Positions 224-47,749 of a stretch of DNA of 64,000 nt are shown here, piece by piece. A model generated the notes under the pieces. That model ran no database searches. It saw nothing but the letters and a program-made list of their open reading frames with translations, and was not told the origin of the DNA. How positions within the stretch are numbered: the first letter of the stretch is position 1; each line of letters opens with the position of its first letter. A program made the position numbers and the translations under genes. Source of the DNA: Ginglymostoma cirratum (taxonomy: Eukaryota); the NCBI GenBank assembly GCA_024137785.1, contig JAHRHZ010000019.1, forward strand, positions 26,158,327 through 26,222,326. The letters run 5' to 3'.

Positions 224-431
224 AACAACAAAAACAAAGTTGCTGGAAAAGTTCATCTGTGAAGGAAAAAACAGAGTTAACGTTTTGTTGCCGTTCTGAG
301 GAACGGTGCCTGGACCCGAAACATTATCTCTGTTTTTTCCTTCACAGATGCTGCCAGACCTGCTGACCTTTTCCAGCAACTTTGTTTTTATTCCTGATTT
401 ACAGCATCTGCAATCCTTTCAGTTTTTGTCT
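224..431. mobile_element. Fold-back (inverted) Penelope-like terminal-repeat insertion with hammerhead-like motif
   Basis: Left arm (~228-285) is the reverse complement of the right arm (~319-389). Flanked by a 12-bp direct repeat CTCTTGCATACC at 212-223 and 432-443. Same family as the terminus at 6961-7108. Confidence 0.8.
293..329 (+). ncRNA. Degenerate minimal hammerhead ribozyme motif
   Basis: CTGAGGA (296-302), imperfect stem II CGGTGCCTGGACCC, GAAA (318-321), then CATT (consensus CGTT). Confidence 0.5.
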
Positions 432-1163
432 CTCTTGCATACCCAGCCAGGCAATGGAAGTATTGTGTCAGCACTATCAATGGTCTTCTTGAACATATTT
501 TGTGCGACATCATGGTTGTCATTGTGTGTATAGAGTCTACATGTGCAAAAATTATTGACTGGGGTCATTGTCTATTTTTGAAATTGGATAACCTTTCTTA
601 CTGAGCATCCACCATTTGATTTTGTGCGCTGGCTCGAATGTAGATGATTCAACTGCTGTAGATGAAAGCATCATGACTGCTGACATAATATCGAGTAGGA
701 TTCTTCACAAATGGTCACATATCAGCTGGATATTGAGCGACTGGAATCCCTTTCAGGTTTGGTTGATCTCAGAGTTGACACGTAGCACCTGCCAACTGAC
801 GTGTGCATAGGCAATGGTAGCCTGCAGATGGAGAAACTTGACTGCCCACTCTATGTGCTGTTCTCTGGCAAGAGAGAATGAATATTAGTTAGCTTTCTTT
901 GAATGGGGAGCTTCAGTGATCTCTCTAACACATTGGATGATACTGAACAGTGAAATGTTGCAAATATTCCGTTTCCAACCTGGAAGGGACTCAACATATA
1001 GAAGTTCATGGCTACAGTCATTGACAAAGTTATCCTTGCTTTGATATGTGATTGCAGCTATGGCTGCAATTGGTGGCAGATATCAGTGAAGAAATCCTTA
1101 ATGAAGCAGAGACAGCTTACACACTAAAATTAACGTAAAGTACTATAGATACTGGTGATAAGA

Positions 1164-1229
1164 AATACAAACAGAAAGTGTTGGGCAAATGAGATCTGTT
1201 GACTATCTCCAGCACTTTCTGTTTGTATT
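1164..1229. repeat. Short inverted repeat (21-bp arms, 1 mismatch), probably a PLE-terminal remnant
   Basis: AATACAAACAGAAAGTGTTGG (1164-1184) versus CCAGCACTTTCTGTTTGTATT (1209-1229). Confidence 0.65.
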
Positions 1230-2344
1230 ACACCTCTCATATCAATCCTCGCTATGATTCAGTTGAAGAATTTATCCCTGAACATCCTAGGCAAATGTGG
1301 CTTCTTGCTGAGAACTCGTCTCCCTCTTCCACTTCCACTTCCAGCAGTTGGACCTGCTGTATGTCACCTCTGCTCATTCTCCTTGTAATGCTGTAGCCAA
1401 GAATGATGCATGCTGCTGCATCCATGTCTGGAAGAAAGTAGGTTGTGTACTTTGAAGTCAGGCAAAAGTCCTTCATTATTTGCCACACCTCTCATTGTAG
1501 ACTGCAGCATCTCTAAAGAACTTCAGCGAGCACAAAACATGTGTATAATTCCAGCAGCAGTCAGTATAAATCAATCAGTAACTAACAAATAATGTTGCTG
1601 ATGATCCCTTTAAATAACTTTGGTTCCGGTTCCTTCCTGCTGTTGGACCCATGTTCAGCCTTATGTAACTGAGAGGTGACATTTGCCGCTGCCTTAAGCT
1701 TCAAACTGACAAGACTTATGTCACATCAGTCTTAGGCAATGATTGACTTCATGAGTTGTATACACTGCATACAACTGATTCACCGTAAGCACAATAACTC
1801 CCTCAACCTATTTGCTTATGAGGCAAATCACAGCAGATACGTGTGTGTAAACTGCAGATGCCATTTTGGATCTCTAACTGCACTTGTGGTGCCCAAAATG
1901 GATTGAACCTTTGTATCAGTTAACAGCATATATCAAATCTTATGGCATGAAAATGTAACACATTGATCAGAATTTTGTAGTCAGTGTTAAAGAAATAGCA
2001 ACTTTCTGTTAGTTATTCACAAAGTTTCTGAGCAGAGACTCAGTCTTATTCTGTACAGCAGGACTTTTGGGTTATCCATGAGCAGACGAAAACAGTGATG
2101 GTCGCGAATCAATAGAATTTTTCAACATTCTAGCTCTGGAGATCTTGCATGTTGGCCTTACCGTACCATTTGATTATTTTCATTATTCTATATCTGAACT
2201 ATTTGAACCTGTCAATTTGATCATTGTTTATGATTACTCCCAAATATCTATTGTGCTCTTCCAGCTGAAAATCGCTATACTTATCAATAGGTCACTCACC
2301 TGTCTTTTTTATGATGCAGATTTTGGACAGTAATTTTCAAATTT

Positions 2345-2680
2345 ATTTCTTGGGCATCACTAGCAAGGCAAACATTCATGGCCCATCCTGAATTGCCCTT
2401 GAACTGAGCAGCTTGTTAGACATTGCTGTGGGGCCTGTGGTCATATGTAGACCAGACTGGGTAAGGATAGCAAATTCAGTTTCTTCATGGGCATTAGTAA
2501 AACAGATGCATTTGTGTTAAATCATTGTCATTATTCAGGCTAGCTTTATATTACAGATTTATTGATTAATTTTAAACTCCACTCATCTTCATGGTAAAAT
2601 ATGAACCTACATCCAAACAGCTTTAAGTTGGGTCTCCGGGTTACTAATTCAATGACATTTCCACTACACCACTACCTGCA
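2345..2680 (-). mobile_element. Old SINE/LINE tail fragment
   Basis: Resembles the start of the element at 26745 (GC..CATTT/CATTCATGGCCCATCC..AATTGCCCTTGA). Heavily decayed; family not assigned. Confidence 0.4.
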
Positions 2681-3489
2681 ATTCACAGCGTCAGTAGATT
2701 CAGTAAGGGTGTTATTGTAGACACAGTTAGCAGCTACCAGATGTATGCACAGTTGACAGATTGTGACATCAGCCAGTGTGGAATAGAGATTTGATGCCAG
2801 GGCTGCTTTCTAAACTATCAATGCTCATTTTTAACATGGAATAGAGAAGACAGCAACTTCCTAGTACAAGCCTAAGCAGTTAAATGGACCAGAAAGGAAA
2901 TTGCTGTGCTGGTGTTACCCTGCTTGCCAACAGTTTGCACTGTAACAGAATCTTGCTGATAGGCATACATTTTAAGGAATGCAACGGCCAACCTTCCCAT
3001 TGATGAGTTGCTAAGGAACACTGATTTTGAACTCACAGTTTATCAACAGAAAGTAACTCAGATTCAGGCTTCAATACAGCTCAGGCCTCACTGTGGTAAC
3101 AAGGGGCAGGCAGCAGGATAACTTTGCCTGCTGACTGTTAAGGTAAAATAAAAGATTAGTTCCAATCTTTTATATACATTTATCATAACCCTGTTACTCT
3201 AGAGCTGATTAATATATGCCAAGATTCTAGTGATCTTGTGATGGCTTTACCTCTACCAGCATGTGTACTTTTGGCTAATCGAGACTCATGGAAGCTAATT
3301 GGAATTTATCCTTGTTCTACTGCAGAAAAAGGAGCTAGCTATTTGATGAGTCTTTGGTAACTGGTGAAGGTCTTAGTGTTTTTATACTTTAACTTAGTAC
3401 ACAAATTGGTGGTCAATGTAACAAAATGCATAAAAGGCAACAGAAATAAGTGAATAATAAAACCAATTAATCAATTAAAACACATTAAG

Positions 3490-4360: not shown

Positions 4361-5877
4361 AATGCTGGAAGTAGAATGGATTTTAAACTTAACAGTGGGA
4401 GCAAGGAATCAAAATTGGGAAGATAATGTAAATCGAATAATGGAGTTAAGGCCAAAGAGAAAGATATTAAAATGGGAAATAATAAACAGATTATGATAGT
4501 GGGGGATAGAGAATATGAACCTAAAGGTCATATTCATAACCTAAGAAGAAGTGCCAAAGTAAGGAGAAAACAGCTCCAAGCTTCTGTCATTGTTTCTTGG
4601 CTCAAATGATCTGTGATAAGACAACTGCAATTGAATCATCTGCAGAATGAATTACATGCTGGTTTATTTATGTATTAGGATGAGAATTTATTTGCAAAGC
4701 TTATAAATAATGGAGTATGAGAGCAGGAATGGTATGGACATTACATATTTGGCATTTGCCTTCTTATTTTCATCTTCTAAGACCTCCACTTTTGACTTGT
4801 ACAGTGGTTTGCCAGCATCCTCGTCATAAGTAACTAGAAACCAGAAACTGAGGGAGGCCAACATCTATTTCAGTTCTCTGATCCAAATTATCAGATTTTT
4901 TCTCCTTGAAGAAGGAAATGAACAGTATGACCTCATCTGGTTGCCATGTTGCGTGATCTCACATAGCTGGCAAGAAGCATTGGGATGGGAGAGAGCAATC
5001 GTGCTTATGGAACAAGTTATTGTGTGAGGATTTAGTGTATCCTTTCATGTTAGATATTGGGGGAAAGTGCAGCTGGGGATGAAAGAAGAGGAGGTGATAA
5101 GTTGTACATAACCTCTTCTCCCATGATAGTGGTAAATTTAGGAGCACTTAAATGTAGTGAAAAATAATTTTAACTGTAAATGATTATTGTCATTACAAGG
5201 TACCACTGTCTCCTCTTACTTTGGCTGCCTTAGGTAGGTTGTTACCTTAACTTTAATTGCAGTGCAGGGGTATTGAAGACGGCATGAATTGCTCCATCGC
5301 TAATAATTTCCACTGCGCCTGGATATTCCTTGTTGATAAGTGCTTGTATTCAATGCCAAATATTTCTTCCAAATCCTGTTTATTTTGGACAAGTAATCCC
5401 TCTGGTAATCGTTTGAAGGATCAAGGTGCTATAGCTCTACTTATAAACATTTTTAGAGAAACTTTCAAGTAGGATTCAACTATTGAAATATTGTCATCTG
5501 TATACTTAAAATATTCAGTAGTTTAACTACAAACAGCTTTGGATTTCCTGGCACCTTGTAGCCAGCAAGTGGTATTATAGTTGTGAGATAACAAACAAAT
5601 TAAAATGATCCTCAACCCAGGAACCCAGCCAGACTAATAGGGAGTCATATCGGGAGGCAAATGATCTGTCTCATTGCACGACCACCAAATAGCCGGATAA
5701 GAACATAAAACATAGGAACAAGAGTAAACCATACAATTTCCCGAGACTGCTTCAAGATTAAATATCAGAACTGATCTTTGCCCTGACCTCCACTTTTCCA
5801 TTTGATCCCATATTCCTTTATTCCACTAGAGGCCAAAATTCCAAGCCTTGAACATATTCAACAACTGAGCTTGCGCA

Positions 5878-7108
5878 TTTCTGTTTCCATTTCTGGAGAT
5901 AGACTGGCCACTAATATCCACTACAAACCCATTGACTCCCACAGCTACCTGGACTATACATTCTTACACCCCAACTCCTGTAAAGACTCCATCCCATTCT
6001 CTTAGCTCCTCCATCTCAATTGCATATGTTCAGAGGAGGCCAACTTTGACAAGGGAGCCTCCGAAATGTCCACCTTCTTCCTCAACCAAGGATTCCCCAG
6101 CTCCTTTGTAGACAGGGCCCTCAACAAGGTCGGACCCGTCTCCTGCTCTTCCGCCCTCACCCCTTCTCTTCCCTCCCTCAACAGTGATGGGGTTCCCCTT
6201 GTCCTTACCTACCATCCCACCAGCATCCACATCCAGAAGATCATCAGGTGCCATTTCCACCACCTCCAGCAAGATGCCACTACCAGACACATATTCCCCT
6301 CCCCTCCTTTGTCCGCCTTCCACAGGGACCGTTCCCTCCAGGACACCCTGGTCCACTCTTCCTTCATCCCCAGCACTTCCCCACAGCCCTACTGCACCTT
6401 CCCTGTAACCGGTGAAGGTGCAACACCTGCCCATTTACCTCCTCCCTCTAGTCTATTGCATTCACTGCTCACAATGTGGTATCCTCTACATTGGGGAAAC
6501 GAAGCGTAAAGTGGATGACTGCTTCGCAGAACATCTGTGTTCTGCTCACAAAAAAGATGCTGAACTACCCATTGCCTGCCACGTTAACGCACCACCCTGT
6601 TCCCTGGCCAACATCTCTGTCTCTGGGTTGTTGTAGTGTTCTAGCGAAGCTCAACGCAAGCTGGAAGAACAACACCTCATCTTCCACTTGGGGACCCTGC
6701 AGCCCTCTGAACTCAATATCAAGTTCAATAATTTTAGGGCCTAAACTCGACCATGGCCCAGACCGTACCCCACACACCAGGCCTTGTTACCACATAGCCA
6801 GCCATTACATACTACCTATAATTAGTCACTAATAGTCCCCATTAACACCTATTCACCCTCCCAGCCTGATCGTCATCAACCCTTTAGGCTCCATCCTATC
6901 GTTTACTCCCTACCCCATCCCCCTCCCCTTTTTTCTGCATATAAAATGATGTTTTCCCAGCCACCATCAGTTCTGAGGAAGGGTCACTGGACCCAAGACA
7001 TTAACTCTGATTTTTCCTTCACAGATGCTGCCAGACCTGCTGAGCTTTTCCAGCAACTTTGTTTTTGTTCCTGATTTACAGCATCTGCAGTTCTTTCGGT
7101 TTTTATTC
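5878..7108 (+). mobile_element. 5'-truncated Penelope-like retroelement (RT thumb, linker, GIY-YIG endonuclease, terminal repeat); pseudogenised
   Basis: Pieces IHYKPIDSHSYLDY, FFLNQGFPSSFV, PLVLTYHP, VYCIHCSQCGILYIGETKR..FAEHL (GIY-YIG) and EEQHLIFHLGTLQPSELN, with stops and frameshifts. TSD AGCTTGC(G/A)CA at 5868-5877 and 7109-7118. Confidence 0.9.
6969..7006 (+). ncRNA. Hammerhead ribozyme motif in PLE terminal repeat (core mutated)
   Basis: AGTT-CTGAGGA-A-GGGTC ACTG GACCC-AAGACATT-AACT. Perfect 5-bp stem II and 4-bp stem I (AGUU/AACU); GAAACGTT has decayed to AAGACATT. Confidence 0.6.
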
Positions 7109-7696
7109 AGCTTGCACAGACTTTTGTGACAGAGAATTCTAGACATTCATAAGTCTCTGAATGAAGAATTTCCTTCACATCTAAGTATTAAATGATCAAC
7201 TCCTTACCCTGTTACTATGTCCCCAGTTCTAAACTTTGCAGTTAAGGGAAACAATCTTTCAGTATCTATCCTGTCAAACCCGTATGTTATATATTTCAAA
7301 GGTAAGTAAGTCCTTCCTTTGGAACAGAGACCAAAAGTGTGCACTGTATTTCAGGTCTGGTCTCACCAACATTTCATTATTCTTGTGCCATAAACCTCAG
7401 CATGCTACTTGCTGAAGTATTTGCTTGCTGTATCTTCCTGCCAAATGTCTGTGCTTCTTTGAAGAGGACACTAAATGCTACTGAAAAGCAACATCTATAA
7501 TTTCTCATCTCTTTAAAAAAAAGTCTGTCTTTCTATTCTTGCTACTAAAGTGAATTAACTCACGTTTAACTATGTTATCCACGAAGAGCTACCTTTCTGC
7601 CACTCACTTAAACTGTATATGCCATTTTACAGGTTAACGGTGTTCTCCTATCCCACACAGCTTTGCGTGATCAGCAAACTGGATACCATTACTTTA

Positions 7697-7759
7697 AGTT
7701 TTCCTGCTCCTATGATGCTGCTTGACCTGCTGTGTTCATCCAGCCCCATGCTTGTTATC
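7697..7759 (+). mobile_element. 63-bp PLE-terminal micro-insertion with 12-bp TSD
   Basis: TSD ACCATTACTTTA at 7685-7696 and 7760-7771. Insert is near-identical to the arms at 47230-47292 and 47697-47749. Confidence 0.85.
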
Positions 7760-7869
7760 ACCATTACTTTATGTGTTATTTAATCTAAGTCATAGGAAAA
7801 CCATGAGGTTTCTTGCAGCGATTCACTAGTTATACCACAGAAGGCATACTAATTTGAAAATGTTTCATT

Positions 7870-9065: not shown

Positions 9066-9436
9066 ACCATTAATCAGTTTTTTCTTACATTACAACTACT
9101 CCACTCCCCTAACCATGTATTCTAACTTTCAGGCAAATGTCCTTTCCAGAGCTAACCAAGAGAGGCTGCAGTAAATATTGTACTGAATTTCCAGGACCTG
9201 TTGGAAAATGGATAGGGGGCAGTAACTCACCTTGAACAGCGAACGAAGACCTGCTATCTCCGAGTCATCTTCGCTGTGACTAGGGTAACATTTAGTGGGG
9301 CCTTGCTGGAGTCATGCAGTGGATAGGTTTAAAAGTGGAAATTGAAAACTCCATTGCCATTTTTGGTCTGAACTGCCTACACTTGTATTCAACCAGTATT
9401 TGCTGCTAGTCCAGCCATAGACAGAATGACAGGCTT

Positions 9437-9523
9437 CTATGATGCTACTTGGCCTGCTGTGTCCATCCAGCTCCACACCTTGTTATCTCGGATTCTCCAG
9501 CATCCGCAGTACCTATTATCTCT
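9437..9523 (+). mobile_element. PLE terminal-repeat fragment
   Basis: GATGCTACTTGGCCTGCTGTGTCCATCCAGCTCCACACCTTGTTATCTCGGATTCTCCAGCATCCGCAGTACC, same family as 21662-21850 and 41989-42172. Confidence 0.8.
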
Positions 9524-11119
9524 AACAGTAAGTTCTGATGTCTTTGACCTCTTACGATGGGAATGAATACGTTTCCTCTGCGTGTTGAAAGTTTACGCAT
9601 GCTCAAGGGTAAAGATTCTAGTCATACTACCCCAGTTAAACAGAAAATGTAGGTTTATAAAATAAAACTCGTAGTCTTACCCAAAATGTATTGAAAAACG
9701 ATGATCATTTTCTCAAACATGGAGCGTCTTTGTGTCTAGGCCTGGAAAGGCTTCATCTGACATGGCGTACGTGCTCATCTTTAAACTTTAGTGAAAGTTA
9801 AAGCCTATTACATACAAGATTTTGAAACAAAAGGCTTTTCTTATCATATACTGAGAATAACTGAAGTATTGTCTACACGTGCGATATCCACAACACATTT
9901 AAACGTTATATCACACAGTATAAAAACAATTGTGCAAAAACATAGTTTATTGATTCTTCTGGGAGTTTCTGATAAGTTGTCACGCTTCTGATTCCTGAAT
10001 GTCTTTCTTAATGTGTGGGTGGGTGAAAAACAACATTTTTTTTCATTCCGCACTGGTCTTTTGCTAAACGTTTGCCTGTCAGTAATAATGAACAAAATGA
10101 ACTTGCCCAACCAAGTACTGGAATCTGCTGTTTATCTTGGTATCTTTCTGCCAAACAGCAGGTGGAGCTGCTGCTTTTTTCGTGTCCGTTGTGTTGATTT
10201 CAGGTGAGAAGATGCGAGAGGAGAATTAATAAAAACGGCAGCAAGGACAAAGACGCCAAAGGAGACGGACATGGAGAAAGGACCTCCCTGTGTTTCGTGT
10301 ATACTATTAAGTCACACCATTACTGAGGAAATTACATAAATCGGCAATGACTTGGAACAAGCAAAAAGATGGTCTAAGTGCATGAAGTGATTAAGTCATA
10401 TTTCCTTATAGATGTGAGTAACCACGTATTATGTAAATTACCCAGGTTCTAGTTAACTGGCTGCAGTAGTCACCACTTATGCGCTGCACTGTGTTTATAC
10501 CGTGTTATGTTGTAGTTAATACCGTGTAACGTTGTATTTTGTGTAATATTGTCTAAAACATTGCAACTTGTTTGTTAATGTAGATTTGCAGTTTTGTCAT
10601 TGAACGCAAAGTTATCGAAAAACATGATTACAATGCATATGTGTTTACTCGGATTACAAAATCGTTAGCAGGGACTGTCTTTGTTTTTTTCTTCCATCCA
10701 GTTAGTAATTCAATAGACATTCAGTATACTTACAGTTTAAATATATGCAATTAATTTTGCGGGTTGCACAACCAAAACCTTTTCTCCGTTGCTGTGTTAA
10801 GGAAAAAAAATGGTGTTCATGTACAGTTCAGAATAAATTCCTGGCCTGTGTGAGGCCCAAACAAATATCTTTAAGCGGTTTTCGTCCACTTTAAAGCTGA
10901 GTTCCGAACTCAGAGCCGGATCTTGTTTCCGAACGCGCGGCATCGCCGGTACTTGCCATGTCCTCAAATCATTTTCTGATTGATTTCTGACTGATCACCG
11001 TTATCAGTGTTTAAGGAAAGCTTACACCAGGAAAGGTAACGCCGGAAATACCAAATCCAATTAAAATAAATATCTGAAAATCCTCTACCTCTCGGCTATG
11101 CGTCTACACAAGCGAAACA

Positions 11120-11200
11120 CTGCAGACGCTGCAAGTCTGAACAAAACTGAAAGCGGTGGAAATACTCAGCAGATCTGGCAGCGTCTGTGGAGAGAAACTC
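11120..11200 (-). mobile_element. PLE terminal-repeat fragment
   Basis: Antisense of the ACAGATGCTGCCAGACCTGCTGAG..CAGCATCTGCAG terminus. Confidence 0.65.
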
Positions 11201-11870
11201 AGTTCCTGTGCTGGGTTTTTAGAAGAGCACGGTCTGTGTCCCTGCCCCAGTTGAAACATGGGAGGTAGGGTCCTGCCAACAGCAATTTAACGTTGAGAGC
11301 AGCTTTGATCGCTCTAAGGTGAGATTTCAGCCCCCTACCTCGGGATGAACTCCAGTCTTTGAGAGCTTTCGGCCAATTGGATGGCCGGCAGCTCTGTAGT
11401 CCCAGCAGCGCCAACCTGGGCTGGCGGTCACTGCTGGAACTACAGGCAGCAGTGCCGCATGGAGAACCCAGGTAAGTCAGGGTCGAGGGTTTCATCAAGA
11501 GAGGTGAGGGCGGTTGGGTCCAAGAGGCTGCTGGGAGAGTCAGAGGGCAGTGGGGTTGGGAGGGAATGACCTTGTGTAGGAGTGCGTCCGATGGGTCAAA
11601 GTATGCTGAATAAAGAGCTCCCCTCAAACTTGACTGATACCAGTCCACGTTACCAACTTTCCCCCATGAGATGGAGTGCACTCATCAAATTAAATACGGG
11701 AGCTGACCCCGTCAGATAAAATATGGGAGGGGGTGACATCGATAGATGAGACTTCTCATACCAAATAAAATCAATGTTTGATGCGACAACTCCTTAAAGG
11801 GGCACTGTAACAAAAAGTCAAGATCTCAAAGGAAGCTTATTTAAACCGATGGAGAGGGATTGATGATGTA

Positions 11871-13243: not shown

Positions 13244-13531
13244 TCATAGAATCATAGAATCCCTACAGTGTGGAAGCAGGCTGTTCGTCCCATCGAGTCC
13301 ACACCGACCCTCCGAACAGCATGCCACCCATACCCATCCCCTGTCCTATCCCTGCATTTCCCACTCGAGACACTGTGAGCAATTTAGCACGGCCAATCCA
13401 CCTAACCTGCAATTTTTTGGCCTGTGGGAGGAAACCCACGCAGACACGGGGAGAATGTGTAAATTCCACACAGTCACCCGAGGCTGGAATCGAACCTGGG
13501 CTCCTGGCGCTGTGAGCCACCGTGCCGCCCC
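13244..13531 (-). mobile_element. HE1-type V-SINE
   Basis: Antisense tail TCATAGAATCATAGAATCCCTACAG, V-domain, B box (GGAATCGAACC) and head CACCGTGCCGCCC. Confidence 0.9.
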
Positions 13532-15470: not shown

Positions 15471-17651
15471 GATAGATTTACAGATACATCTGATACCTCA
15501 TTATGTCCCACCTCTCAATCGTCATCTTGAATATACCAGAGCCATGCGATTATCAATATTGATAATCATTGAACTAAGCATACCTGCCTATATAGCAAAT
15601 TAATCATCGTGTGAAATAATTTGTATTGAAAAATAATTAATTGGAAATAGTTTGTTACTTGCTGCATACTTAAATGTCCTTCCAGCTAGGAAGACAGTTT
15701 TATAAAGCAAGCGGTTGAAAACATGCCTTAAACTTGCTGCCTTAGGATTTTTTGAAGAGTTGTCGTCGGCAGAGCTTGTTTGATGCAGAATTGCAATTGT
15801 TTTGGGATGTTGAGCACTTACAGATGCTGTGTAGGGTACAAGATCACATTTTCAGAAACCTCTGAAAAAATGTGTAAATTTTAACATTGGGAAACCGGGA
15901 GAAGGGGCAAATCACATATCCTAAAACACCCATCGAAAGGGGTAGTGTAGACGTTGAAATAAATCAGTAAAAAAAAGCCGCTTTTTGTAACACCGACCGA
16001 TAGTCCTAGGCAGCGTGAAATTTAAGGAAACAAGTTGAGGAATGTGAAGTGAAGGGAGCTGTCCTGAGAAGGGCTTCGTGTGTCAGCGGACAGTATACTT
16101 CTATCTTCAAACATCAAGTGACCCTGCAGAAGCTGGATAGCTTGAATCGGCGAGCAGTGGGTTGTTGCAAGTCTTCAAGTCCTTGTAAAACAAGCAACTA
16201 CTTCTGGTGTAATGAAAGTAATGACTAACAACACAATCTTAAGCGAAAAACCCCGGCGCAACTTTTCCTCATAGTTTGCTGTATTGTTAGCGTTAAGTCT
16301 GGTCGCTTGAATGTTCCATCAGCAAGCAATTAGATGAACGCCACTAGCGGCAGCAAGTATGAGTGTCCCGCCTGTGGAATATACACATGTCTGATCAAAC
16401 CAGACAAGCAGTAGATAAGGGGATGATCTGAATCTTTTCTGTTCACACTGGTACGTAAAGTGTCATCCGAAAAGTATGTTCTGTTTGGATTAAGGTGAAT
16501 CACATTGTTGGATTTGCCACTGAGCGGCTCTGAGAACATCAATTGAAAATTAGGAACGCGGTGTCCCATTAACTAGGCAGCATATACAACACGTGAGTTA
16601 CTTTACAAAAGCAAGTCGACTGTACCATCAGTGAATCTGGCCAAAAGACCCCAACCAGCCCAACAGCCCCGTTTTCAGAAACACGCTGTGTTTTCTGCTT
16701 TGGTTGTATGTTTAGACTAACTCCCAGCTCCCTGTAGTAATTAATGATGCAGTAAAGTACAAAATACATGACCACCCGCTTCTTAAAAAGAAATCTGCGT
16801 TTTCGATTTTACGAAGTAGAGAATAACACTCCAAGCCACACAATGCACATATAAAACATCAAAAGGCATTTAAATGTATGTCCGTTTATGTATTTGCGGA
16901 AGGCTTCATTCCGAGATCTGAAAATCTTGCTACCTGCCGGATAGTGGCTTCGAAGCACCCGCCACTATTTCGTTTGTCCAGTTGACAGCATTTCAGAGAG
17001 AGGACCCAAAAGTGATATCGAATACAATCACCGTTTATCTCCATACCAGCCAGGAGCTGTGAGACTCCTCCAGACCCAACCCCAATGAAAACTGCATCCA
17101 GTCAAGGACACTAAAGGCACAGCTGAAATTTCTCTGGGACAGCGACATTGGGTTAACTTTTGCCGTTGTGTTTGGCGACTGGAGATTGGCAATACAGCGG
17201 CGATTTTTTTCTACGAGTTGCTGTTTTGAAGACAACCAACATTAAATCACAGCAGTTTCATTATACACTGGAAAAGATAAATATAAACTGAAACGTGTGA
17301 CTGATTTTGCAGTGCAGCTTTGAGACGGTCCACACCAGGGGTTTGCGAGAAAAAGTGTGAGAATAAATGCTGATTAATCTGGGGCCAATGATCGAAATAC
17401 AATGCTGTCTTTCTATTATGATTTATTAATAATGCAACAAGTAAAAATTAGAGTGTGAATATGTTCCGGAGCAGCTATTTTAAAATATGGCCGGAATAGA
17501 AAGACACCGTACAAAACTGTTAATTCTTATGATGCGAAAAGGTAATAAATATGTGTATGAATGGTGCCGCCAGGCGTGTTCCTGATTTCTAAAGCCAGAT
17601 AACTTTCCAGAACCCCAGCCACTAATGAAAAACAACACCCTCGCACAATGA

Positions 17652-17701
17652 GATAACAAGGTGTGGAGCTAGATGATCACAGCAGGCCAAGCACAATTTT
17701 A
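17652..17701 (-). mobile_element. 50-bp PLE-terminal micro-insertion with 15-bp TSD
   Basis: GATAACAAGGTGTGGAGCTAGATGATCACAGCAGGCCAAGCA flanked by ACCCTCGCACAATGA at 17637-17651 and 17702-17716. Confidence 0.85.
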
Positions 17702-20396: not shown

Positions 20397-21661
20397 TAGC
20401 TTTCAGAATGTTGTGACATGTAACGGCACATTCCACCCCAAACTTTAACTGAAGTTGTTCACGATCCACAGGTTAAAGCCATGCCTTTCGCTACATTCAC
20501 TCAGGCGGCTCACTACATTGGTTTCCAGATAAGGACGCACGATTTCCTAGTTTCAGGATGATAGCACGGTATGATTTCTACTTTTAAGTTCAAAATGTCG
20601 ACAGCAGAGGCGTATCTGGGGCACAAACAATCGTCTCGATTGCTCACAATGGAGCCGATTGTGCTGCTCCTCCTCGTTTGTGACACCTTTTCCCACGGGC
20701 GCCTTTCAGAGCAACCCCAAAAGCTGCTTCTCCTTTGTCCACTTTCAGGCGGGTGTACAATGCGGAGGGCTAGAGTTACAAGAGTTTTCTGTAATGGATA
20801 TTTGCCACTGAACCAGCTGAATTCCTGGAGATCAGGCAGCACTTACATAGCTCGTTCTACCTGTTTAGCTTGAATTGATACAAATGAAAGTTCCTCCCTC
20901 ACCCCTCGGGGGAACAGGCAAAATTCTTTGTTCTCGCCCGAAGTAGTGTTACAGTAGAAGTGACGGCCTTTCCCAAGCGTGACTCGAGACGTGACCTGAT
21001 CTTTCTGGGAAAAGGAGAGCTTCAAAACGCCTTGACGGTGGGCACTCGAAAGTGCAAATTCCAGACAAAAGGCTCCACAAAACTTCAGTCAGCCACATCG
21101 ATGTAAACAAAGAAGCTCAAAGTGATCCAAAATATTAAGAGTCCCGCTTCTTCCACTTTAATGCACACTTTAGTCCCAACTTCATAAAGGCTGCCTTTGT
21201 AGACCCCTTTTAAAATCATCACTTTGGTCAAAATAAAAACGTTTTTGATTTGAGGTTTAAAGTTTCTGGGGAAAACACGCAGGTGTGCGTGAGCTTGGAA
21301 AACATTTTGAAGAGAAAGTACACGGTATCAGGCGGCACGGGGCTGAAAAGACTTCTGGTATCACTTTCAGGAGCGTCTGCTGCAATATTTAGTGAAAACC
21401 CTTTGGAAGTGGCAAATCCTAACCCGACCAGAGAATGCGACTCTTCCGACGAGCGACCAAGAACAAAAAAGGCACCATTGTTCCTGAATAAACAGCTCTT
21501 CGGTGGAATGAGTGTGTAGTGGAGAATTAAGTTTCTTCAGAATCATACTTGAGCACCATGTACTGAACACAGAACATCTGCACGTTTGGTTCGCGTTCTC
21601 GACAAATAGTGACATATGTGGAGATCATTGGCACTTTGATTTCCGACACTATTAGCAGTCA

Positions 21662-21850
21662 GAGATAGTAGGAACTGCAGATGCTGGATAATCTGAGATA
21701 ACAAGGCGCAGAGCTGGATGAACACAGCAGGCCAAGCAGCATCAGAGGAGCAGGAAGGCTGACGTTTCGGGCCTAGACCCGCCTGAAACGTTAGCCTTCT
21801 TGCTCCCCTGATTCTGCTTGGCCTGCTGTGTTCATCCAGCTCTACACTCT
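21662..21850. mobile_element. Fold-back PLE-terminal insertion with 14-bp TSD
   Basis: Arms ~21707-21773 and 21781-21846 are inverted. TSD ACTATTAGCAGTCA at 21648-21661 and 21851-21864. The minus strand reads GGGTCTAGGCCCGAAACGTCAG (3' half of a hammerhead). Confidence 0.9.
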
Positions 21851-22299
21851 ACTATTAGCAGTCAAAGAGTTTTATCAATTACTGGTGATTCTCGTCGCTC
21901 ACCGTGGTCTGTTCTGTTAAAATATCCAAAAGTATTTTAAAGAGTTGCCAGCAGCAGTTTAAGGTTACGGCTGAAAGAACTTTAGCAGGTGAAAAGTGTC
22001 AAACATGTCACAGAGCAGACTCCGGAAATGAATGGACTGTGATGTTACAGAATAAACCTTTTACATCTGGTTTGTTAATCTGTTAAAAGCTTAAAAAAAA
22101 ACTCGCTAGATGCTGTTCATATGATATTCCTTATGCTCATGGCGAGTTTCAATAGTAGTTCCTTTGCCTGTTGTTTTCGACTAGTCTCCGCTTTCTTTAT
22201 TAGAAGAACAAGTCTTTCATTCTGTTCAATTGCTGTTATATATTTGTCATACCTTCGCAATGAAATCACTGTCTGGACTCAAAATATGATTTTGCCTTA

Positions 22300-26609: not shown

Positions 26610-26737
26610 GTGTGGAGCTGGAGGAGCACAGCAGGCTAGGCAGCATCAGAGGAGCAACAAAGTTGATGCTTCGGGTCAGGACCCTTCTTCAGAAATAGGG
26701 GAGGGGGAAGGGAGCTCTGCAATAAATAGGGGGAGGT
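26610..26737 (-). mobile_element. PLE terminal-repeat fragment with hammerhead-like motif (26662-26694)
   Basis: Minus strand TT-CTGAAGA-A-GGGT CCTG ACCC-GAAGCATC-AA; remainder matches the 41989-42172 family. Confidence 0.75.
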
Positions 26738-27979: not shown

Positions 27980-28219
27980 AGTTCTTCATGTATATGCATG
28001 AGTTATATATTGTCATGTGGTAATAAGAAGAATAGTGTATAAATGTGTATGAAATAGCATTTGCTCATGTATGTCTGTGTAAATGGGATATATTAGTATA
28101 TGTTGAGTAGTTCTATGAAATCCTGCAAGATAGTAGATGTTACCTATCCTCATGAAACTGCCCTCTTTTTTATCCATTTTACTCACTACAAACTCACCAA
28201 CTCCCACAGTTAACTTTGA

Positions 28220-29390
28220 CAATGCATTTCACACCTTGCTTCTGCAAAGACTCCATTCCATTTTCCCAGTTTCTATATCTCTGTCCTAACTGTTCTGATG
28301 ATTCCACCTTCCATGGGAGGGCTGGGACGGGGGTGGGGGGAGATGACAAGTGGTGGGTGTGGGTGTAGGTGGTCACAAATGTCCACCTTTTTCCTCACGG
28401 AAGATTCCTGCCTCTGTGGTTGACAGGGCCTTCAGCCACCTCTGATCCATTTCCTGCAGTTTTGACTCACCTGTTCTCTCCCCTTAAACAATACAGTTCC
28501 CCTGGTCCTCACTGTCCACCCCATCAGCCTTTGCGTCCAAAGGATCATAAGCACCATTTCTGTCATTTCCAGATACATATTCCCCTCCCCCTCCCTTGTC
28601 AGCATTCTACAGGGACCATTCCCTCCTGAACAGCCTGGTCCACTATTCCTCCTCCACTCCCAACACCTCCCACACACCCATGACACCTTTCCATGCAATT
28701 ACAGAAGGTGCAACACTCCCCTTAACCTCCTGCCTCCTCACTATCCAAGGTTCCTGACTGACCTTCCAAGTGATTCAGTGACTAGCTGCACCTCATTCAA
28801 TCTAGTCTGCTATATTCACTGCTCACAACTTGGTGTCCTATACATTGGAGAGACCAATCACAGAACGGGTAACCATTTTTCCGAACACCTACACTTAGTC
28901 AGTAAGAATGACCCCAAGTTTCCAGTTGCCCACCACTGCAACACCGCACCACGTTCTCATGCCGACAAATTCTGTCTCGGGCCCGCTGCAAAACTCCAGT
29001 GATGTTCAGTACAAGCTGGAGAATCAAGACTTGATATTCTGCCTTCGTATCTTATAGTCTTCTGGGCTCAACATTGAGTTTAACAGTTTCAGAACATGAA
29101 CACGCTCCTCCACGGTGGTTACTGTCCCCCACCCCTCATTCCCTGTATTATATGAGATTCCCCTGCTCAGCAAACCCATTTTCAAATGTTCGTATTTCTC
29201 ATTAGCACCCGACCCAGCATTAATGTCTCCCTAGGCTTATCACCAGTTTTCTCTTTGTTTGCCTTTTTTTCTCTCTCTTTGCCCTCCATATCCATGCACT
29301 CTACTTACAGAATCAATATCCCCCTTTCCCCGCTACTTTCAGTTCTAAGGTTCACTGGACGTAAAATATTAACTGTTGAGTTTCTCCAGT
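28220..29390 (+). mobile_element. Older decayed Penelope-like element (RT thumb to GIY-YIG plus 3' region)
   Basis: CKDSIPFSQFL at ~28243, NLVCYIHCSQLGVLYIGETNHRTGNHFSEHL in ORF 28778-29002 and GLNIEFNSFR at ~29064; collinear with 5980-6740. Confidence 0.85.
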
Positions 29391-29504
29391 ACACCCTGTT
29401 TTTGCTCCTTTTTGTTTTGCTAACTTGTTGTTTTGCTCTACCTATCGATCAGGTTGAAGAACTTGTTAAACTTTGTCTTCCCCAACCATTAAATTCTATC
29501 CCCT

Positions 29505-29605
29505 AGTTGTGAGGAAGGGCCACCAGACCCGAAATATTAGTTATGATTTCTCTCTACAGATGCTGCCAGACCTGCTGAGCTTTTCCAGCAATTTCTGTTT
29601 TTTGT
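29505..29605 (+). mobile_element. PLE terminal repeat with degenerate hammerhead motif
   Basis: AGTT-GTGAGGA-A-GGGCCACCAGACCC-GAAATATT followed by ACAGATGCTGCCAGACCTGCTGAGCTTTTCCAGCAA. Confidence 0.75.
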
Positions 29606-30947
29606 ATGTGCTATCCTCTGTTACAGCAACAGCAACAGCACGAACGACGTACCAATCAGAAATAAAATGTGGATAACTAGTTGGTCATTTTTAAAAATGG
29701 TATTTGTTCCATGTAAGTGATAGTGGCAGAAGTGCACATATTCCACATTCGGTCATTTGGAAGAGAGCAGAGTTGATTTCATAGAAATCATACAATCAAC
29801 ATAAACATTCAAATATAGAGCACACGGAATTCACAATCTAACAATACGCTCGCAATGTAGATGTACACTCTAAATCCCAGTTGTTGTTATGTGTAAGTTC
29901 AAGTTTGCAAAGTTTACCGTAGCCAATGAGTAATTTTAGATACTTTTAAAATTCTGACAAGGGCTACCTTAGTTAAATCATTATGTTCCAAGTTTAGCCT
30001 CCTGACTGTTGCAACTCCCTTACAGTTTGCTAGGAAATTTATGATCTTCATCCCCCGAATTGCTCCTGACCTGCTGAGTCTGTAGGGAGAACATTATTCA
30101 AATGTTTACCTTTAATGAGCGACACTTGTCAATCGCAAATCGTCACGGTGCCACGCCAAATATTTAACAGAGAGCTGTAGCTCTGGGACACAACTAAATA
30201 TTCGTGTGCAATCTTGCGCAGCCTTGCTTCAACACCCCAGCAGTCCGTTAAGGTAACGTTGTTCGTCCTCAGAACTGCTCTCGTCCTCAGAAATTTATTC
30301 ACATTGCATGGCCATCAGCCCAGTGTAGCAATTCACCAGAGACCAGACAGCAACAGCTCCCTTACACAATCGAATGACAACATCTACATCTTTTCCCTTC
30401 ATTTGACTCGACATTGGAAATGTACTTTAATAGTTTAGCGGCTGCCGTCGGCTATATCTAGGATGCAAAAAACCGTCGGGTACTGAACAGACGTTAAATT
30501 GTTCGAAAAGAACAATCTACTTCCTAATGTGTTGACGGACACAATATTGGATAACAAAGGTAATGACATGCTGTTTGCCTAAACGACCAGTGCTGGTTTA
30601 CACTACTGTAGTTGTTTTATAAACCCACATTCGCATGGTATAATGTTACTGGCCATTTTGGTAATATAATCGCACCATGTTACTGTAGGGCCCTATCAAC
30701 AAGTTAGAGTTGATTGATATTTTAGCATTTTCCAATAGTGGAAGAGCAGGGGAACATTACAGATACGAGGTAGGAATAGCGGAGAAGACGAGGTCATACA
30801 ACTACCATATTTATCACTCACGCAGCAGCATCAACGCCAAACTCGGAATTATAAATATTGAAGCTGGACTCCGAGTTGTTTGTTGAATATGCCAAGAGGG
30901 ATGTGAGAAGGAAATGAATTAGGCTCTCTAGCTCTCAAGTGACGCGA

Positions 30948-40610: not shown

Positions 40611-41349
40611 GAAAATAATTAGGAAAAAGTGTTAGTATGAACCTTTCAAAAGGAAAGTGGATAACCTTTTAGACCAGAAGAATATCCAAGGCAACGCTAT
40701 AGAGCAGGCCAGTGAAATTAGATTGTTCTAAATGTTTCTATGGTCTGGTACAAGCACCACAGCCCCCCCCTGTAAACTGAACCAAATGGCAACAAGCCAA
40801 AGATTAAGTTAAGAATAGGTGGCTCATATGGAAAGAAATGCTAATATTCCCACCCTTTTATCACCTCTCCAAATTTAGAAACAATATGTGTTAGAAATTA
40901 GTTTAATATTTTCTTCAGGCACAGAGTTGATGCCACTCATAGCACAGCTCCAAAACATAACCATGGTTCCCAATTGGTCCCCAGTGTACATTTCAATATA
41001 TTGAAAGCCTTAGGGTTTGGGTGGGGGGGAAGGTGTCTCAGTACATTTCTGACACTATTTAGAAGCAGTTTGTACCTCTTAGGGAAGTGTATTTTGGTTG
41101 CTGACAATGATAACTGAAGATTATTGACTGGGGCAAGCTGAGTCAAGCCTTCAAAGTCCCACTAGTTTTTGACACTACATTTATACTTATATTCTAAATT
41201 TGCGTGCAATATTAAAACATCTTTTTCAATTGGGTGAAGGATAGTGCACAATAGTTTCCATAGTCTGTTTATTTGACCATTTATGAAGAATTAATAGAGC
41301 TTCTGACTCCCAATCAGAAAATAATGGATTCAAGCCCTACTCCAAACAA

Positions 41350-41516
41350 TGGAGATGAACAGGAGGCTGGAAGAACATAGCAAACCAGGCAGCATCTGGA
41401 GGAAAGGAGAAGGTAGTGTTTCTCTTCTCCTTTCCTCCTGATGCTGCCTGGCCTGCTGTGTTCTTCCAGCCTCCTGTTTGTCTACCTTGGATTCCAGCAT
41501 CTGCAGTCTTCTTTCT
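41350..41516. mobile_element. Fold-back PLE-terminal insertion (third subfamily)
   Basis: AACAGGAGGCTGGAAGAACA..GGAAAGGAGAAG (41358-41412) is inverted to CTTCTCCTTTCC..CCTCCTGTT (41424-41478). Degenerate TSD CTACTCCAAACAA / CTATTCAAACAA. Confidence 0.75.
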
Positions 41517-41988
41517 CTATTCAAACAAAAGGGTTGATCAGAGATCAGAACTCTGCTCCTGAATTCTGCTTTGAAACCCAGGGAAATGTTCTTCTTTTCT
41601 GGATGTGGGTGCCTGCTTTGTCCTCCCATATTAACTAAGGTTGAGGTTTTGGTCTGCAGAACTGTTTGTTATCCTATGAAACCCTTCCACTAATTTGCAC
41701 TATTGTGCAAAGCAACAGTAGGAGATTGGGCAACAATCATCTGTAAACATGTTAAAACAGGGAAAGAAAATAGAAATATTTCACAGAAAATTCGACAACA
41801 ACAATTTGCATTTACTAATCCCAACATATTTGGATTAACATGTGCAATTCTGGTCTCCATATAAGAAAGGGACATTGAGGCACTGGAAAAGGTGCCAGAA
41901 AGATTGATAAGGCTGGTACCAGAAAAGTGGTTATGCCTGTCAACACGGGCTAGATCTCTACACTTGAAAACAGAAGGAGAGATGACCT

Positions 41989-42172
41989 GAGATAATAGGT
42001 ACTGCAGATGCTGGAGAATCTGAGATAACAAGGTGTGAAGCTGGATGAACACAGCAGGCCAAGCAGCATCACAGGAGCAGGAAAGCTTGAAGTTTCGGGC
42101 CTAGACCCTTCATCAGAAGTGGGGGAGGGGAAGAGGGTTCTGAAATAAATAGGGAGAGAGGGGGAGGCGAAT
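41989..42172 (-). mobile_element. PLE terminal-repeat insertion nested in a CR1 fragment
   Basis: TSD ATGACCT at 41982-41988 and 42173-42179; carries the hammerhead motif at 42086-42119. Confidence 0.85.
42086..42119 (-). ncRNA. Minimal type I hammerhead ribozyme (best-preserved copy)
   Basis: Minus strand CUU-CUGAUGA-A-GGGU CUAG GCCC-GAAAC-UUC-AAG: intact core boxes, 4-bp stem II, 3-bp stem I (CUU/AAG), loop-less stem III and an NUH cleavage triplet (GUC in sister copies). Confidence 0.75.
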
Positions 42173-42492
42173 ATGACCTAACATGTTTATTTAAACGTCT
42201 GAATAGGCACTGAATAAATAAACTGTCTAGATATGACACAATGTGACTTAAACCTAGGCCTTCCGGCACAGAGTAGGGACACTGCCACCTCACCAAAAGG
42301 CCCCTTGAATAGACCCAGAAAGTGCATTTGTGGAAAACAGCATATCTAAACATCATCAATACGCAATAGTCATCGATAAATCAATTATATGTATTTGGAA
42401 GACAACTTCATTTTCAGAGAGTGATGAGAACTTAAAACCGGTTGTCACAGGGAGTTGGTGAAGGAAGTAGTGTAGGTGCACAAAAGGAAGGG

Positions 42493-42630
42493 GCAAAATC
42501 AGAAATTACTAGAAAAGTTCAGCACGTCTGCCAACGTCTGTGGAGGGAAATCGGAGTTAACGTTTTGGGTCCAGTAACCCTCAATTTGGTCTCTAATTTC
42601 CAGCGTCCGCAGTTCTTTCTGCTTTTATTA
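42493..42630. mobile_element. Inverted/rearranged PLE terminal fragment
   Basis: Antisense terminus to GTTAACGTTTTGGGTCCAGTAACCC (stem II GGGTT ACTG GACCC on the minus strand), then sense CCAGCGTCCGCAGTTCTTT. Confidence 0.7.
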
Positions 42631-45914: not shown

Positions 45915-46385
45915 AATAAAACAAAGAGCTGTGAATGCTGGAGATCTGAAATGAAAACAGAAACAGGTCTGGCATCTGTGGAGTGATAAAAACAGAGTTA
46001 ATATTCAGTCCAGTGGGCCTTCCTGATAACTGAAAGCAGCTGGGAAATGGTGATATTTGTGCTGACAATGGTGGGGTTGTGTGTGTGGAGGGGGAAGCAT
46101 TGCAAAGAGTAAGTCAAATATATGGAGAGGTGGAGTTTGTGTGCAGAGACAGAGAGAGAGAGAGTAACAAGAAATAGACAAGGGGATTGCTGATGATAAG
46201 TTGGGAGAAAGGTAAATGCTGAGTGGGTGCTAATGGGAATTGTGAAGTCAAAAATGGGTTGGCTGTGCTGGGAACAACACACACAGAAGAGGATCTGGGG
46301 GTCAGAGGGTGAGTCACAAACATGAAGTGAGGTGTTCATGCTCCAAAATAGTCAAACTCAATTTTGAGTCCTAAGGATTGTCAGC
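45915..46385 (-). mobile_element. Decayed PLE 3' region
   Basis: Antisense terminus (GAATGCTGGAGATCTGAAA..TCTGGCATCTGTGGAG..ACAGAGTTAATATT) and ORF end (AACTCAATTTTGAGTCC). Confidence 0.6.
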
Positions 46386-46416
46386 AACAGTGGAACTCAA
46401 AAAAGAATTCCACAAA

Positions 46417-46680
46417 ATCATAGGAGCCCTACAGTGTGAAAGCAGGCCATTTGGCCCATTGAGACCACACCAACCCTCCAAAGAGAATCTCATCCAGACC
46501 TGCATCCCCACTACCCTACAACCCTGCATTTCCCATGACTAAGCCACTCAGTCTGCACCGAATGCGCAATTTAGCATAGCCAACCCACCTAATCTGCACA
46601 GTTTTGGACGATGGGAGGAAACCAGGGCACTCAGAAGAACTGTGAGCTAGCAGTGCTAAGCACTGAGCCACCATGCTGTC
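46417..46680 (-). mobile_element. HE1-type V-SINE (internal deletion)
   Basis: CCCTACAGTG..CCCTGCATTTCCCATG..CAATTTAGCAT..GGGAGGAAACC..CACTGAGCCACCATGCTG. Confidence 0.85.
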
Positions 46681-47192
46681 TGTCCTAAATAGCCTACTCA
46701 GAGTCCTGATACTAGAGGGAACATAATTCCTGCATCTAGTCTGTCCAGCCCTTACAAAGTTGCAGACATTTCAATGAGATCTCCGCTTTCTCTTCTAAAC
46801 TCCAGTCAGTACAGGCCTAGTTGACTCATTCTCTCATTGTGCAACAAGCATGCCACCCTAGGAACCAGTTTGGTGAACCTTTACTGCAGCAAGGATATAT
46901 TTTGTTATGCAAGAAAACAAGTGCATGCAATACGCCAGGTGTGATCTCAACAAAGCTCTGTACAGCTGCAACAAGACATCTTTGCTCCTGTCCTCTAACC
47001 CTTTTGTAGTGAAAGCCAATAAACCACTTCTTAACCACTTACTGCATTGCATGCTTACTTCCAGTAACTAGTATACGAGGACACATGAGTCCTTTTGTAC
47101 ATCAACATTTCCCAATCTGTCACCATTTAAAAAGTATCCTGCTATTCTGTTTATACTCCCAAAGTGGACAACTTAACATGTATCCATGTTGC

Positions 47193-47749
47193 AGAAATAA
47201 AAGGTACTGCAGATGCTGGAGAATCCAATATAACAAGCATGGGGCTGGATGAACACAGCAGGTCAAGCAGCATCACAGGAGCAGGAAAACTTGACGNNNN
47301 NNNNNNNNNNNNNNNNNNNNNNNNNNNNNNNNNNNNNNNNNNNNNNNNNNNNNNNNNNNNNNNNNNNNNNNNNNNNNNNNNNNNNNNNNNNNNNNNNNNN
47401 NNNNNNNNNNNNNNNNNNNNNNNNNNNNNNNNNNNNNNNNNNNNNNNNNNNNNNNNNNNNNNNNNNNNNNNNNNNNNNNNNNNNNNNNNNNNNNNNNNNN
47501 NNNNNNNNNNNNNNNNNNNNNNNNNNNNNNNNNNNNNNNNNNNNNNNNNNNNNNNNNNNNNNNNNNNNNNNNNNNNNNNNNNNNNNNNNNNNNNNNNNNN
47601 NNNNNNNNNNNNNNNNNNNNNNNNNNNNNNNNNNNNNNNNNNNNNNNNNNNNNNNNNNNNNNNNNNNNNNNNNNNNNNNNNNNNNNNNNNNNNNNNGCTC
47701 CTGTGATGCTGCTTGACCTGCTGTGTTCATCCAGCCCCATGCTTGTTAT
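47193..47749. mobile_element. Young fold-back PLE insertion with 16-bp TSD, centre unresolved
   Basis: TSD CATGTATCCATGTTGC at 47177-47192 and 47750-47765. The visible arms (47230-47282 and 47697-47749) are exact reverse complements. Confidence 0.85.
47297..47696. other. Assembly gap (400 N)
   Basis: Run of N. Confidence 1.

Follow-up and report, generated by a model that had tools for sequence, protein, structure and literature searches.

A 64-kb window of Ginglymostoma cirratum DNA (the whole stretch analyzed, 64,000 nucleotides) contains motifs resembling hammerhead ribozymes, which raises the questions of what elements they belong to and what their many short copies record. What the hammerhead does in EN+ Penelope-like elements (PLEs) is described as unclear (PMC8557442), and the regeneration of the terminal repeats (pLTRs) is said to have no obvious mechanism (PMC2377424).

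Hammerhead repeats in the window

All seven motifs of a preliminary description were confirmed in place and strand. The window holds 19 pLTR copies, i.e., 12 beyond those described earlier. The features, in which short copies are called stubs, are as follows.

208..426, head-to-head pair: family B stubs (minus arm 287-208, plus arm 293-426), with a decayed hammerhead at 293-329 in the plus arm and a flanking 12-nt target duplication at 212 and 432
5871..6741, plus strand: 3' portion of a family B PLE ORF in decayed form, spanning the C-terminal part of RT, the Cys linker and the GIY-YIG region
6940..6945, plus strand: TATA-like box read from the sequence, of putative function, 29 nt 5' of the putative transcription start at 6969
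6969..7108, plus strand: hammerhead of family B at 6969-7006, with its core decayed at GAAAC-GU, downstream hairpin and tail, i.e., the 3' pLTR of the element at 5871
7695..7763, plus strand: family A stub whose start lies at about the predicted cut site, with a 12-nt target duplication (7685, 7760) that overlaps the junction
9433..9524, plus strand: family A stub, portion 3' of the hammerhead
11117..11204, minus strand: old family B-like stub
17648..17693, minus strand: short family A stub with a 15-nt target duplication
21661..21855, head-to-head pair: two stubs of family A that meet within stem II (half motif 21759-21780), with a 14-nt target duplication at 21648 and 21851
26604..26735, minus strand: family A copy with a TATA-like box and a decayed hammerhead (26662-26694)
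28184..29096, plus strand: old and broken remnant of a PLE ORF, with the C-terminal part of RT and the GIY-YIG region (36-41% identity by tblastn)
29325..29606, plus strand: two decayed family B-like hammerhead repeats (29325-29392, and 29478-29606 with the motif 29505-29541)
41343..41507, fold-back pair: old stubs without hammerhead
41986..42173, minus strand: best-preserved family A copy of the window, with a TATA-like box, hammerhead (42086-42119, a single core change, G16.2 to U), hairpin and full tail
42486..42581, minus strand: family B stub beginning in stem II (half motif 42555-42580)
45919..46243, minus strand: old family B-like pLTR with a decayed hammerhead, missed by the preliminary description
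47194..47772, head-to-head pair: family A copies surrounding a 400-N assembly gap, with a 16-nt target duplication at 47177 and 47750

An intact catalytic core was found in none of the 19 copies, a hammerhead descriptor gave 0 matches in the window, and an Rfam scan of the window returned no hammerhead family at E values up to 5. The window copies are predicted to be inactive ribozymes. The core that the seven motifs were said to share was overstated here: CUGANGA is present in four of the seven, GAAAC-GU-H in one, which lacks the 5' half, and both in none. Rfam matches to miRNAs in the window were rejected, as they are produced by the fold-back stubs at 41343..41507. Pfam found nothing in the ORF pieces of the window. 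The window also contains a SIX1-type homeobox exon.

Core and stems across families

One tight intact-core pattern had 85,807 exact matches genome-wide (4.36 Gb) and 0 for the reversed control, which is a lower bound on intact copies as it represents a single pattern. As a family the repeats are thus far beyond chance, and they are very common, as the preliminary description had said. The descriptor that failed in the window gave 139 matches vs 0 reversed in 1.25 Mb of sampled DNA enriched for the family by search. The 457 kb lying outside one dense contig held 121 copies, from which a rough extrapolation gives about a million stubs genome-wide.

Eight representative natural copies, from families A, B, C, D and F, were compared. 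The core CUGANGA / GAAA / UH is fixed in seven, and the eighth carries a CpG-type change. Pair 1 of stem I is U-A, C-G or A-U and pair 3 is U-G, G-C or C-G, while stem II pairs 2-4 are swapped on both sides among the five families. Stem III is loopless and palindromic in all eight copies (ACGU in seven, AGCU in family F), all eight have an unpaired extra base after A9, and G10.1-C11.1 is G-C in 7/8 and G-U in one. The pair counts were taken from motif-parsed copies; in the MAFFT alignment, family F was shifted by one column.

The existence of several families with covarying stems, the palindromic stem III and the extra nucleotide after A9 therefore agree with the preliminary description, but two of its details do not. 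CUU/AAG, taken as a stem I subfamily state, is private to the copy at 42086; in the family it is UUU/AAG, which includes a U-G pair. Most of the stem II variants that were cited as covarying reflect decay or a change on one side (U-G to U-A), and two-sided change occurs only between families.

Within family A (86 copies), N7 (A in 44, U in 36) and loop II are variable, and the core positions show CpG-type decay only. Intact copies amount to 48/86 in family A and to 16/77 spanning copies in family B. Stem I is merely 2 bp long in subfamilies A2 and A3, and the predicted minimum-energy fold differs from the hammerhead fold. Because stems I, II and III covary across five families around a fixed core, the hammerhead reading is valid for the master elements.

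Parent elements

Families A and B each have their own RT and GIY-YIG ORF, which ends 240-310 nt 5' of the hammerhead. Remnants of the ORF occur in 22 of 32 long copies and stop no more than about 110 nt from the modelled repeat. Pfam recognized RVT_1 (E 1.9e-5) followed by GIY-YIG (E 0.0019) in the ORF, both below the curated cut-offs, and a CX2-5CxxC linker between RT and EN, as defined in PMC8557442, was read in natural ORFs of both families. The window remnant at 5871..6741 has a frameshift near 6410 and 76-81% identity by tblastn to the natural 515-aa ORF of locus L044, with which a PDB sequence search returned nothing relevant. Every ORF copy seen was broken, and no intact full-length master was found. 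The junction of a 5' pLTR with the ORF is present at loci L206, L216, L228 and L230 (partial tandems), and inverted copies occur at loci L183, L190, L192 and L196-L198. Two contig sets of presumed RNA type cover the element, in which transcript starts, strand and level are unreadable.

We interpret the motifs as minimal type I hammerheads, now decayed, that belong to the pLTRs of two related autonomous Penelope-like families. Their assignment to Penelope-type terminal repeats, made earlier, is supported by the link to the ORFs and by the family sequences.

The 5' ends of the copies

The ends were analyzed in 826 kb, which remained after 400 kb of all-N sequence was dropped from a random request of 1.2 Mb and which is weighted to one dense contig. 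The 5' ends lay within -8..+1 of C3 in 50/150 copies of family A and 60/144 of family B, spread across about 6 nt. In both diverged families, the commonest start is the same spot 4 nt 5' of CUGA, on an initiator consensus. A TATA-like box lies at -31 in 53/54 (A) and at -29 in 45/47 (B) of the copies matching the search pattern, and 5 of 8 long ORF-bearing copies share the start site of the stubs.

There were 2,592 exact start-site junctions. Scored by eye, G occupied position -1 in 58 of 100 listed junctions vs 20 of 100 at -2 (p about 1e-8 to 1e-10). When 20 G-type loci, chosen for their G, were inspected by eye, the G lay outside the target duplication or arm in 8, was templated by microhomology in 6 and was ambiguous in 6. 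In a small sample, G was found in only 6/24 (A) and 2/14 (B) copies, and C was commonest. An untemplated 5' G has been described as a cap mark in L1 and SVA (PMC3287187). The fixed initiator start together with the G at -1 suggests that the main template was capped, uncut RNA. Genome-wide, what the copies preserve is thus likely the capped 5' end of the element RNA, with only a small excess beginning at the predicted cut. A literature search covering sources other than subscription journals, Repbase and Dfam found no start-site or cap signal reported in PLEs.

The same pile-up could arise if the RT dropped off or switched template after unwinding the hammerhead, or through microhomology to AT-rich targets. 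The 6-nt spread of the ends fits such an origin, as do several junctions that share 1-4 nt with the target. It is nevertheless improbable, since in two diverged families the mode coincides with an initiator consensus that keeps a fixed distance from the TATA-like box, the G excess is confined to -1, and five of eight long ORF-bearing copies begin at the same place.

Junctions at the predicted cut site

In family A1, 622 junctions fell at the predicted cut, compared with 180, 126, 148 and 230 at -7, -3, -1 and +4; after normalization, the values were 1020 at the cut vs 259-337 at the control sites. Exact-cut junctions of this youngest family are therefore 2-4-fold over four control sites and represent <1% of copies. 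Of 21 cut-site matches checked, 16 were real junctions and 5 were indel variants; several others showed 1-4 nt of microhomology. Family B gave raw counts of 48 vs 15, with no clear excess after matches of the deletion type and those due to stem I microhomology were removed by eye, and the 826-kb sample showed no cut-site peak (11/150 A, 10/144 B). The end histogram overturned an early impression of inverted arms ending mostly at the cut. Locus L213 was rejected as a cut-site start, as it begins 2 nt before the cut.

The small excess at the cut suggests that cut RNAs are sometimes copied, and the hammerhead likely cuts only a minor fraction of the RNAs, either as a dimer or aided by the element protein. 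Alternatively, it is retained as a fold or as a motif overlapping the promoter, never cuts in vivo, and the excess is a junction artefact. In favour of this, the anole PLE did not need cleavage to insert in vitro, and none of its RNA reads stopped at the cut (PMC11167929); stem I complementarity itself produces microhomology at the cut, and family B lacks a clear excess. We consider this rather unlikely, given the fixed core, the covariation of the stems over five families, the A-run control at -7 without a peak and the predominance of real junctions among the matches checked.

A proposed insertion route

The short copies lack the TATA-like box, have target duplications, begin at the putative transcription start and are often arranged head to head (116/303 copies). 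Their other ends lie some 66 or 100 nt 3' of the predicted cut: among 20 copies, 6 ended near +66 and 9 near +99, and 39 young sample copies terminated at +100..104. The optional 30-40-nt tail characteristic of EN+ PLEs is found in these copies.

We propose, with a probability of roughly 0.8, that the motifs are decayed hammerheads of two autonomous PLE families and that the short copies are run-off products of reverse transcription on the capped and mostly uncut RNA of the element. From a TATA-initiator promoter in the pLTR, transcription would begin at the first stem I nucleotide. The element protein would bind the hairpin 3' of the ribozyme, nick both target strands and prime internally there. 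Most cDNAs would extend 130-140 nt to the cap, gain a cap-templated base and be sealed into the target singly or as head-to-head pairs. The abundance of pairs agrees with the two-strand priming and internal initiation known in the anole PLE (PMC11167929). A solo stub would lose the TATA-like box because the box sits upstream of the putative start, and such stubs are predicted to be dead on arrival.

The preliminary description had regarded the short repeats as ribozyme-bearing, PLE-mobilised and retrozyme-like RNAs. In its full form, this reading makes them a non-autonomous family whose transcripts would cleave themselves, circularise and be mobilised by PLE protein. Their very high copy number and the derivation of retrozymes from PLE pLTRs, with a case in one chondrichthyan genome (10.64898/2026.07.22.740005), speak for this, as do 22 cases in the sample of two same-family copies on the same strand less than 1 kb apart. 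We nevertheless regard it as very improbable and do not retain it. Each of the two main families has an RT/GIY-YIG ORF of its own, into which long copies continue; stubs without a TATA-like box start at a fixed place with a G excess, unlike the permuted points of a circle. The 22 close pairs are unequal in spacing and ends, and a tandem hammerhead array without ORF was not seen in the 826 kb.

At eight loci, a start-site stub is joined to a 1.0-1.6-kb 5' piece, in three of them via an oligo-A linker. Such loci lead us to suggest, tentatively and as a doubtful extension of the run-off model, that the pLTR acts like a retroviral U3-R-U5: a strong-stop cDNA running from tail to cap would jump to the 3' end of an element RNA. 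The RNA would start at the hammerhead, and a cut by the 3' hammerhead could define the 3' end that receives the jump, which would regenerate the partial tandems and the promoter. Stubs would then be failed strong-stop products, and the eight joined loci and the cut-site excess would be fossils of the process.

Comparison with known systems

The ribozyme class is already known: minimal PLE hammerheads were described in 2014 (PMC4209133). They share with those of G. cirratum the type I topology, the absence of loop III, palindromic positions 15.2-16.2, the extra base after A9, G10.1-C11.1, the pLTR position, mostly solitary truncated copies and several families per genome. At least 85,807 intact copies (one pattern) compare with about 4,000 in coelacanth and 9,000 in Xenopus (PMC4209133), counts obtained by different methods. 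No shark name occurs in the text and two searchable supplements of that paper, and no prior shark report of these hammerheads was found in a literature search of sources other than subscription journals, Repbase and Dfam. Tandem retrozymes that carry hammerheads are described for one chondrichthyan genome in a 2026 preprint (Li et al. 2026, 10.64898/2026.07.22.740005). These non-LTR retrozymes are likewise pLTR-derived and PLE-dependent with a type I hammerhead (see also PMC7229834), but are defined as tandem hammerhead arrays, whereas in G. cirratum the stubs stand alone or in inverted orientation.

The families resemble Neptune-clade EN+ PLEs, as presented by Craig et al. 2021 (PMC8557442), in having an RT with GIY-YIG at its C-terminus, the CX2-5CxxC linker, partial tandems, inverted copies truncated at the 5' end, and tails. 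In contrast to the accounts of that clade in PMC8557442, no microsatellite targeting was noticed in the junctions read here. The transcript of Drosophila virilis Penelope also begins inside the upstream pLTR (Schostak et al. 2008, PMC2377424); its promoter is internal and TATA-less, whereas here a TATA-like box lies 5' of the putative start.

A close mechanistic parallel is the Poseidon PLE of green anole (Frangieh et al. 2024, PMC11167929), with two internal RT initiation sites 3' of the hammerhead, a 30-40-nt tail, priming on both strands and uncut RNA as the main template. In contrast to Poseidon, as portrayed in that source, the families here have the Cys linker typical of Neptune, a hammerhead at the putative transcription start, 5' of the likely start codon, and a small genomic excess at the cut site, where that paper found no anole RNA reads to end. 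A stub-rich genome is a natural record of template ends, and this one suggests that the start site is defined, that the template was capped and uncut, and that cut RNA was rarely used. Compared with the known systems, the fresh point is this likely fossil record of the insertion mechanism and not the ribozyme class itself.

Hammerhead copies in the window and the genome

The seven motifs of the preliminary description were all found in the window:

293-329, + strand, related motif
6969-7006, + strand, related motif
21759-21780, - strand, half motif
26662-26694, - strand, related motif
29505-29541, + strand, related motif
42086-42119, - strand, best window copy, with a single core change
42555-42580, - strand, half motif

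The common intact core claimed for them was not recovered: CUGANGA is kept in 4 of the 7, GAAAC-GU-H in 1 and both in 0, and a relaxed descriptor, a check proposed there, gave 0 matches within the 64-kb window. Profile models made from natural copies detected 19 related copies in the window, with a complete hammerhead core in 0/19. The window feature is real and of a known kind, and its copies are predicted to be dead.

Genome-wide, the repeat family is real and huge. Exact matches of one intact-core pattern numbered 42,695 + 43,112 in the 4.36-Gb genome (control, 0), and a 28-letter pattern spanning the predicted cleavage site (cut) of A1, the youngest subfamily of family A, gave 90,314 matches. 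An 826-kb sample of the genome contained 303 copies of the hammerhead repeat families; among core-spanning copies, the core was intact in 48/86 of family A versus 16/77 of family B. Gaps of 400 N lie inside head-to-head pairs, i.e., short copies (stubs) arranged as inverted arms (window 47297-47696; many genome matches ~450 nt apart). The assembly therefore breaks at these palindromes, and some copies may be counted twice.

Judged by its sequence, the motif of the master lineages is a hammerhead. The core positions of 86 family A copies show CpG-type decay only; loop II varies, as does N7 (A, 44 copies; U, 36 copies). Among eight natural representatives of five families, the core is unchanged, stem I pairs alternate between U-A, C-G, A-U, and G-C, and stem II pairs 2-4 are swapped, so that the covarying stems proposed earlier are borne out between families. 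The example of stem I compensation offered with them rests on a private change; the family stem I is UUU/AAG. In all five families stem III is palindromic, whether as ACGU or as AGCU. Because it is AGCU in family F, families with differing palindromes would not pair in trans. Further hammerhead-bearing repeats with different stems were located outside the window:

L135:3376-3421, L135:1884-1929, L068:4420-4465; L081:44-82; L194:2584-2624, families C, D, and F

The element that carries the motif

A broken ORF at 5871-6741, upstream of the 6969 motif, shares 76-81% identity with longer natural ORFs at other loci. The latter have RT and GIY-YIG matches, with scores below the Pfam cut-offs, and a CX4CxxC linker, a type that PMC8557442 gives as a Neptune trait. 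Another remnant is present in the window:

28184-29096, second, older ORF remnant

A separate ORF belongs to family A and shares ~60% identity with the family B ORF. ORF remnants end just upstream of the repeat in 22/32 long copies of the two families together, and at several loci the same repeat is also found at the 5' end, continuing into the ORF. Inverted truncated copies are common. The hammerhead repeats are the terminal repeats (pLTRs) of autonomous EN+ Penelope-like elements (PLEs), which upholds the Penelope-type assignment of the preliminary description.

The family B 5' region (L206, L228, and L216; roughly positions +40 to +175 relative to the start) contains a 30-codon upstream ORF and, directly before the likely start codon, a pyrimidine tract followed by CAG that resembles a splice acceptor; a convincing splice donor was not seen. 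Downstream of the cut, families A and B share a conserved GAUGCUG/CAGCAUC inverted pair, which frames the hammerhead-to-tail region and is a candidate protein-binding hairpin.

Copy ends and the start of the RNA

Counted from the predicted cut, copy 3' ends cluster around +66 and +99. The 5' ends in the sample lie within -8..+1 of C3, a core position of CUGA, in 50/150 family A and 60/144 family B copies. Most often the 5' end falls on the A within an initiator-type motif (consensus YYANWYY). This A lies downstream of a TATA-like box, by 31 nt in 53/54 pattern-matched copies or by 29 nt in 45/47. Genome-wide, 2,592 copies begin exactly at this A, with foreign DNA preceding. Among 100 matches listed and counted by eye, the base at -1 was G in 58 and at -2 in 20 (expected, 28%), and 19 of the non-G junctions resemble palindromic head-to-head joints. 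In L1 and SVA, a copied cap is generally recognised by an untemplated 5' G (PMC3287187). When 20 G-type loci were checked, the G was outside the target duplication or partner arm in 8, templated in 6, and ambiguous in 6; the small stored sample showed no clear G excess at -1. Head-to-head pairs hold 116/303 copies of the sample, and target duplications of 12-16 nt flank those in the window. On the simplest interpretation, the RNA would start at stem I, stay uncut in most cases, and be copied from tail to cap, using one or both target strands.

Partial tandems were seen in a small, query-biased set of 30 loci chosen for the 5' ORF segment. In 8 of these, a 1.0-1.6-kb 5' piece is joined to a second start-site stub, with an oligo-A linker at the joint in 3 of the 8; 5 of the 8 themselves begin at the start site. 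The joints fit RT jumping from the cap end to the 3' end of another RNA, a jump that bears on the rebuilding of pLTRs (PMC2377424).

Trace of cutting

A cut-site peak was absent from the sample histogram, with 11/150 (A) and 10/144 (B) ends within 4 nt. Exact genome-wide patterns are more sensitive for cut-site junctions. They gave 622 A1 copies in which three foreign letters immediately precede the cut, versus 180, 126, 148, and 230 in the controls at -7, -3, -1, and +4; normalised for base composition and decay, the count was 1020 versus 259-337. Reading of 21 matches identified 16 junctions and 5 indel variants. The purged excess is ~2.3-fold relative to unpurged controls and concerns <1% of copies. 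The raw family B counts were 48 versus 15, an excess that was gone once ~15 matches of deletion type and 9 with stem I microhomology were removed by eye. As a trace of cutting, the excess of cut-site junctions is suggestive, not proof.

Other features of the window

The remaining features were as follows:

58880-60713, - strand, exons of a SIX1-type homeobox gene (matches to SIX1_SD, E 5e-50, and to the homeodomain)
8548-8835, 11870-12200, 13254-13436, 14083-15453, 46420-46631; 26210-27967, 30949-31196, 36844-37126, other dispersed repeats, SINE- and LINE-end-like
12264-12323 and 15039-15098, inverted pair of 60-nt segments with 95% complementarity, separated by 2.7 kb

The stubs are found past the 3' side of the SIX1-type gene, at a distance of 11-60 kb, and no sign of a link between them was seen in the window. 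The SINE- and LINE-end-like repeats are unrelated to the hammerhead repeats, and the 60-nt inverted pair adjoins inverted repeat copies.

Comparison with known systems

In a limited literature search, no publication was found that deals with PLE hammerheads of sharks or with a cap or start-site signal at a PLE hammerhead. The motif class, its pLTR position, and weak dimer activity are already known from fish, coelacanth, frog, and reptiles (PMC4209133), and the min-HHR traits listed there (kept core, switching stems, palindromic stem III) are those found here. Tandem retrozymes derived from pLTRs are described for one chondrichthyan genome in a 2026 preprint (10.64898/2026.07.22.740005); the short repeats studied here, initially called retrozyme-like, are judged not to be retrozymes. 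Their interest lies in a mechanistic fossil record, not in the ribozyme. Their 3' ends match the two-site tail signature of an anole element, which PMC11167929 explains by internal initiation.
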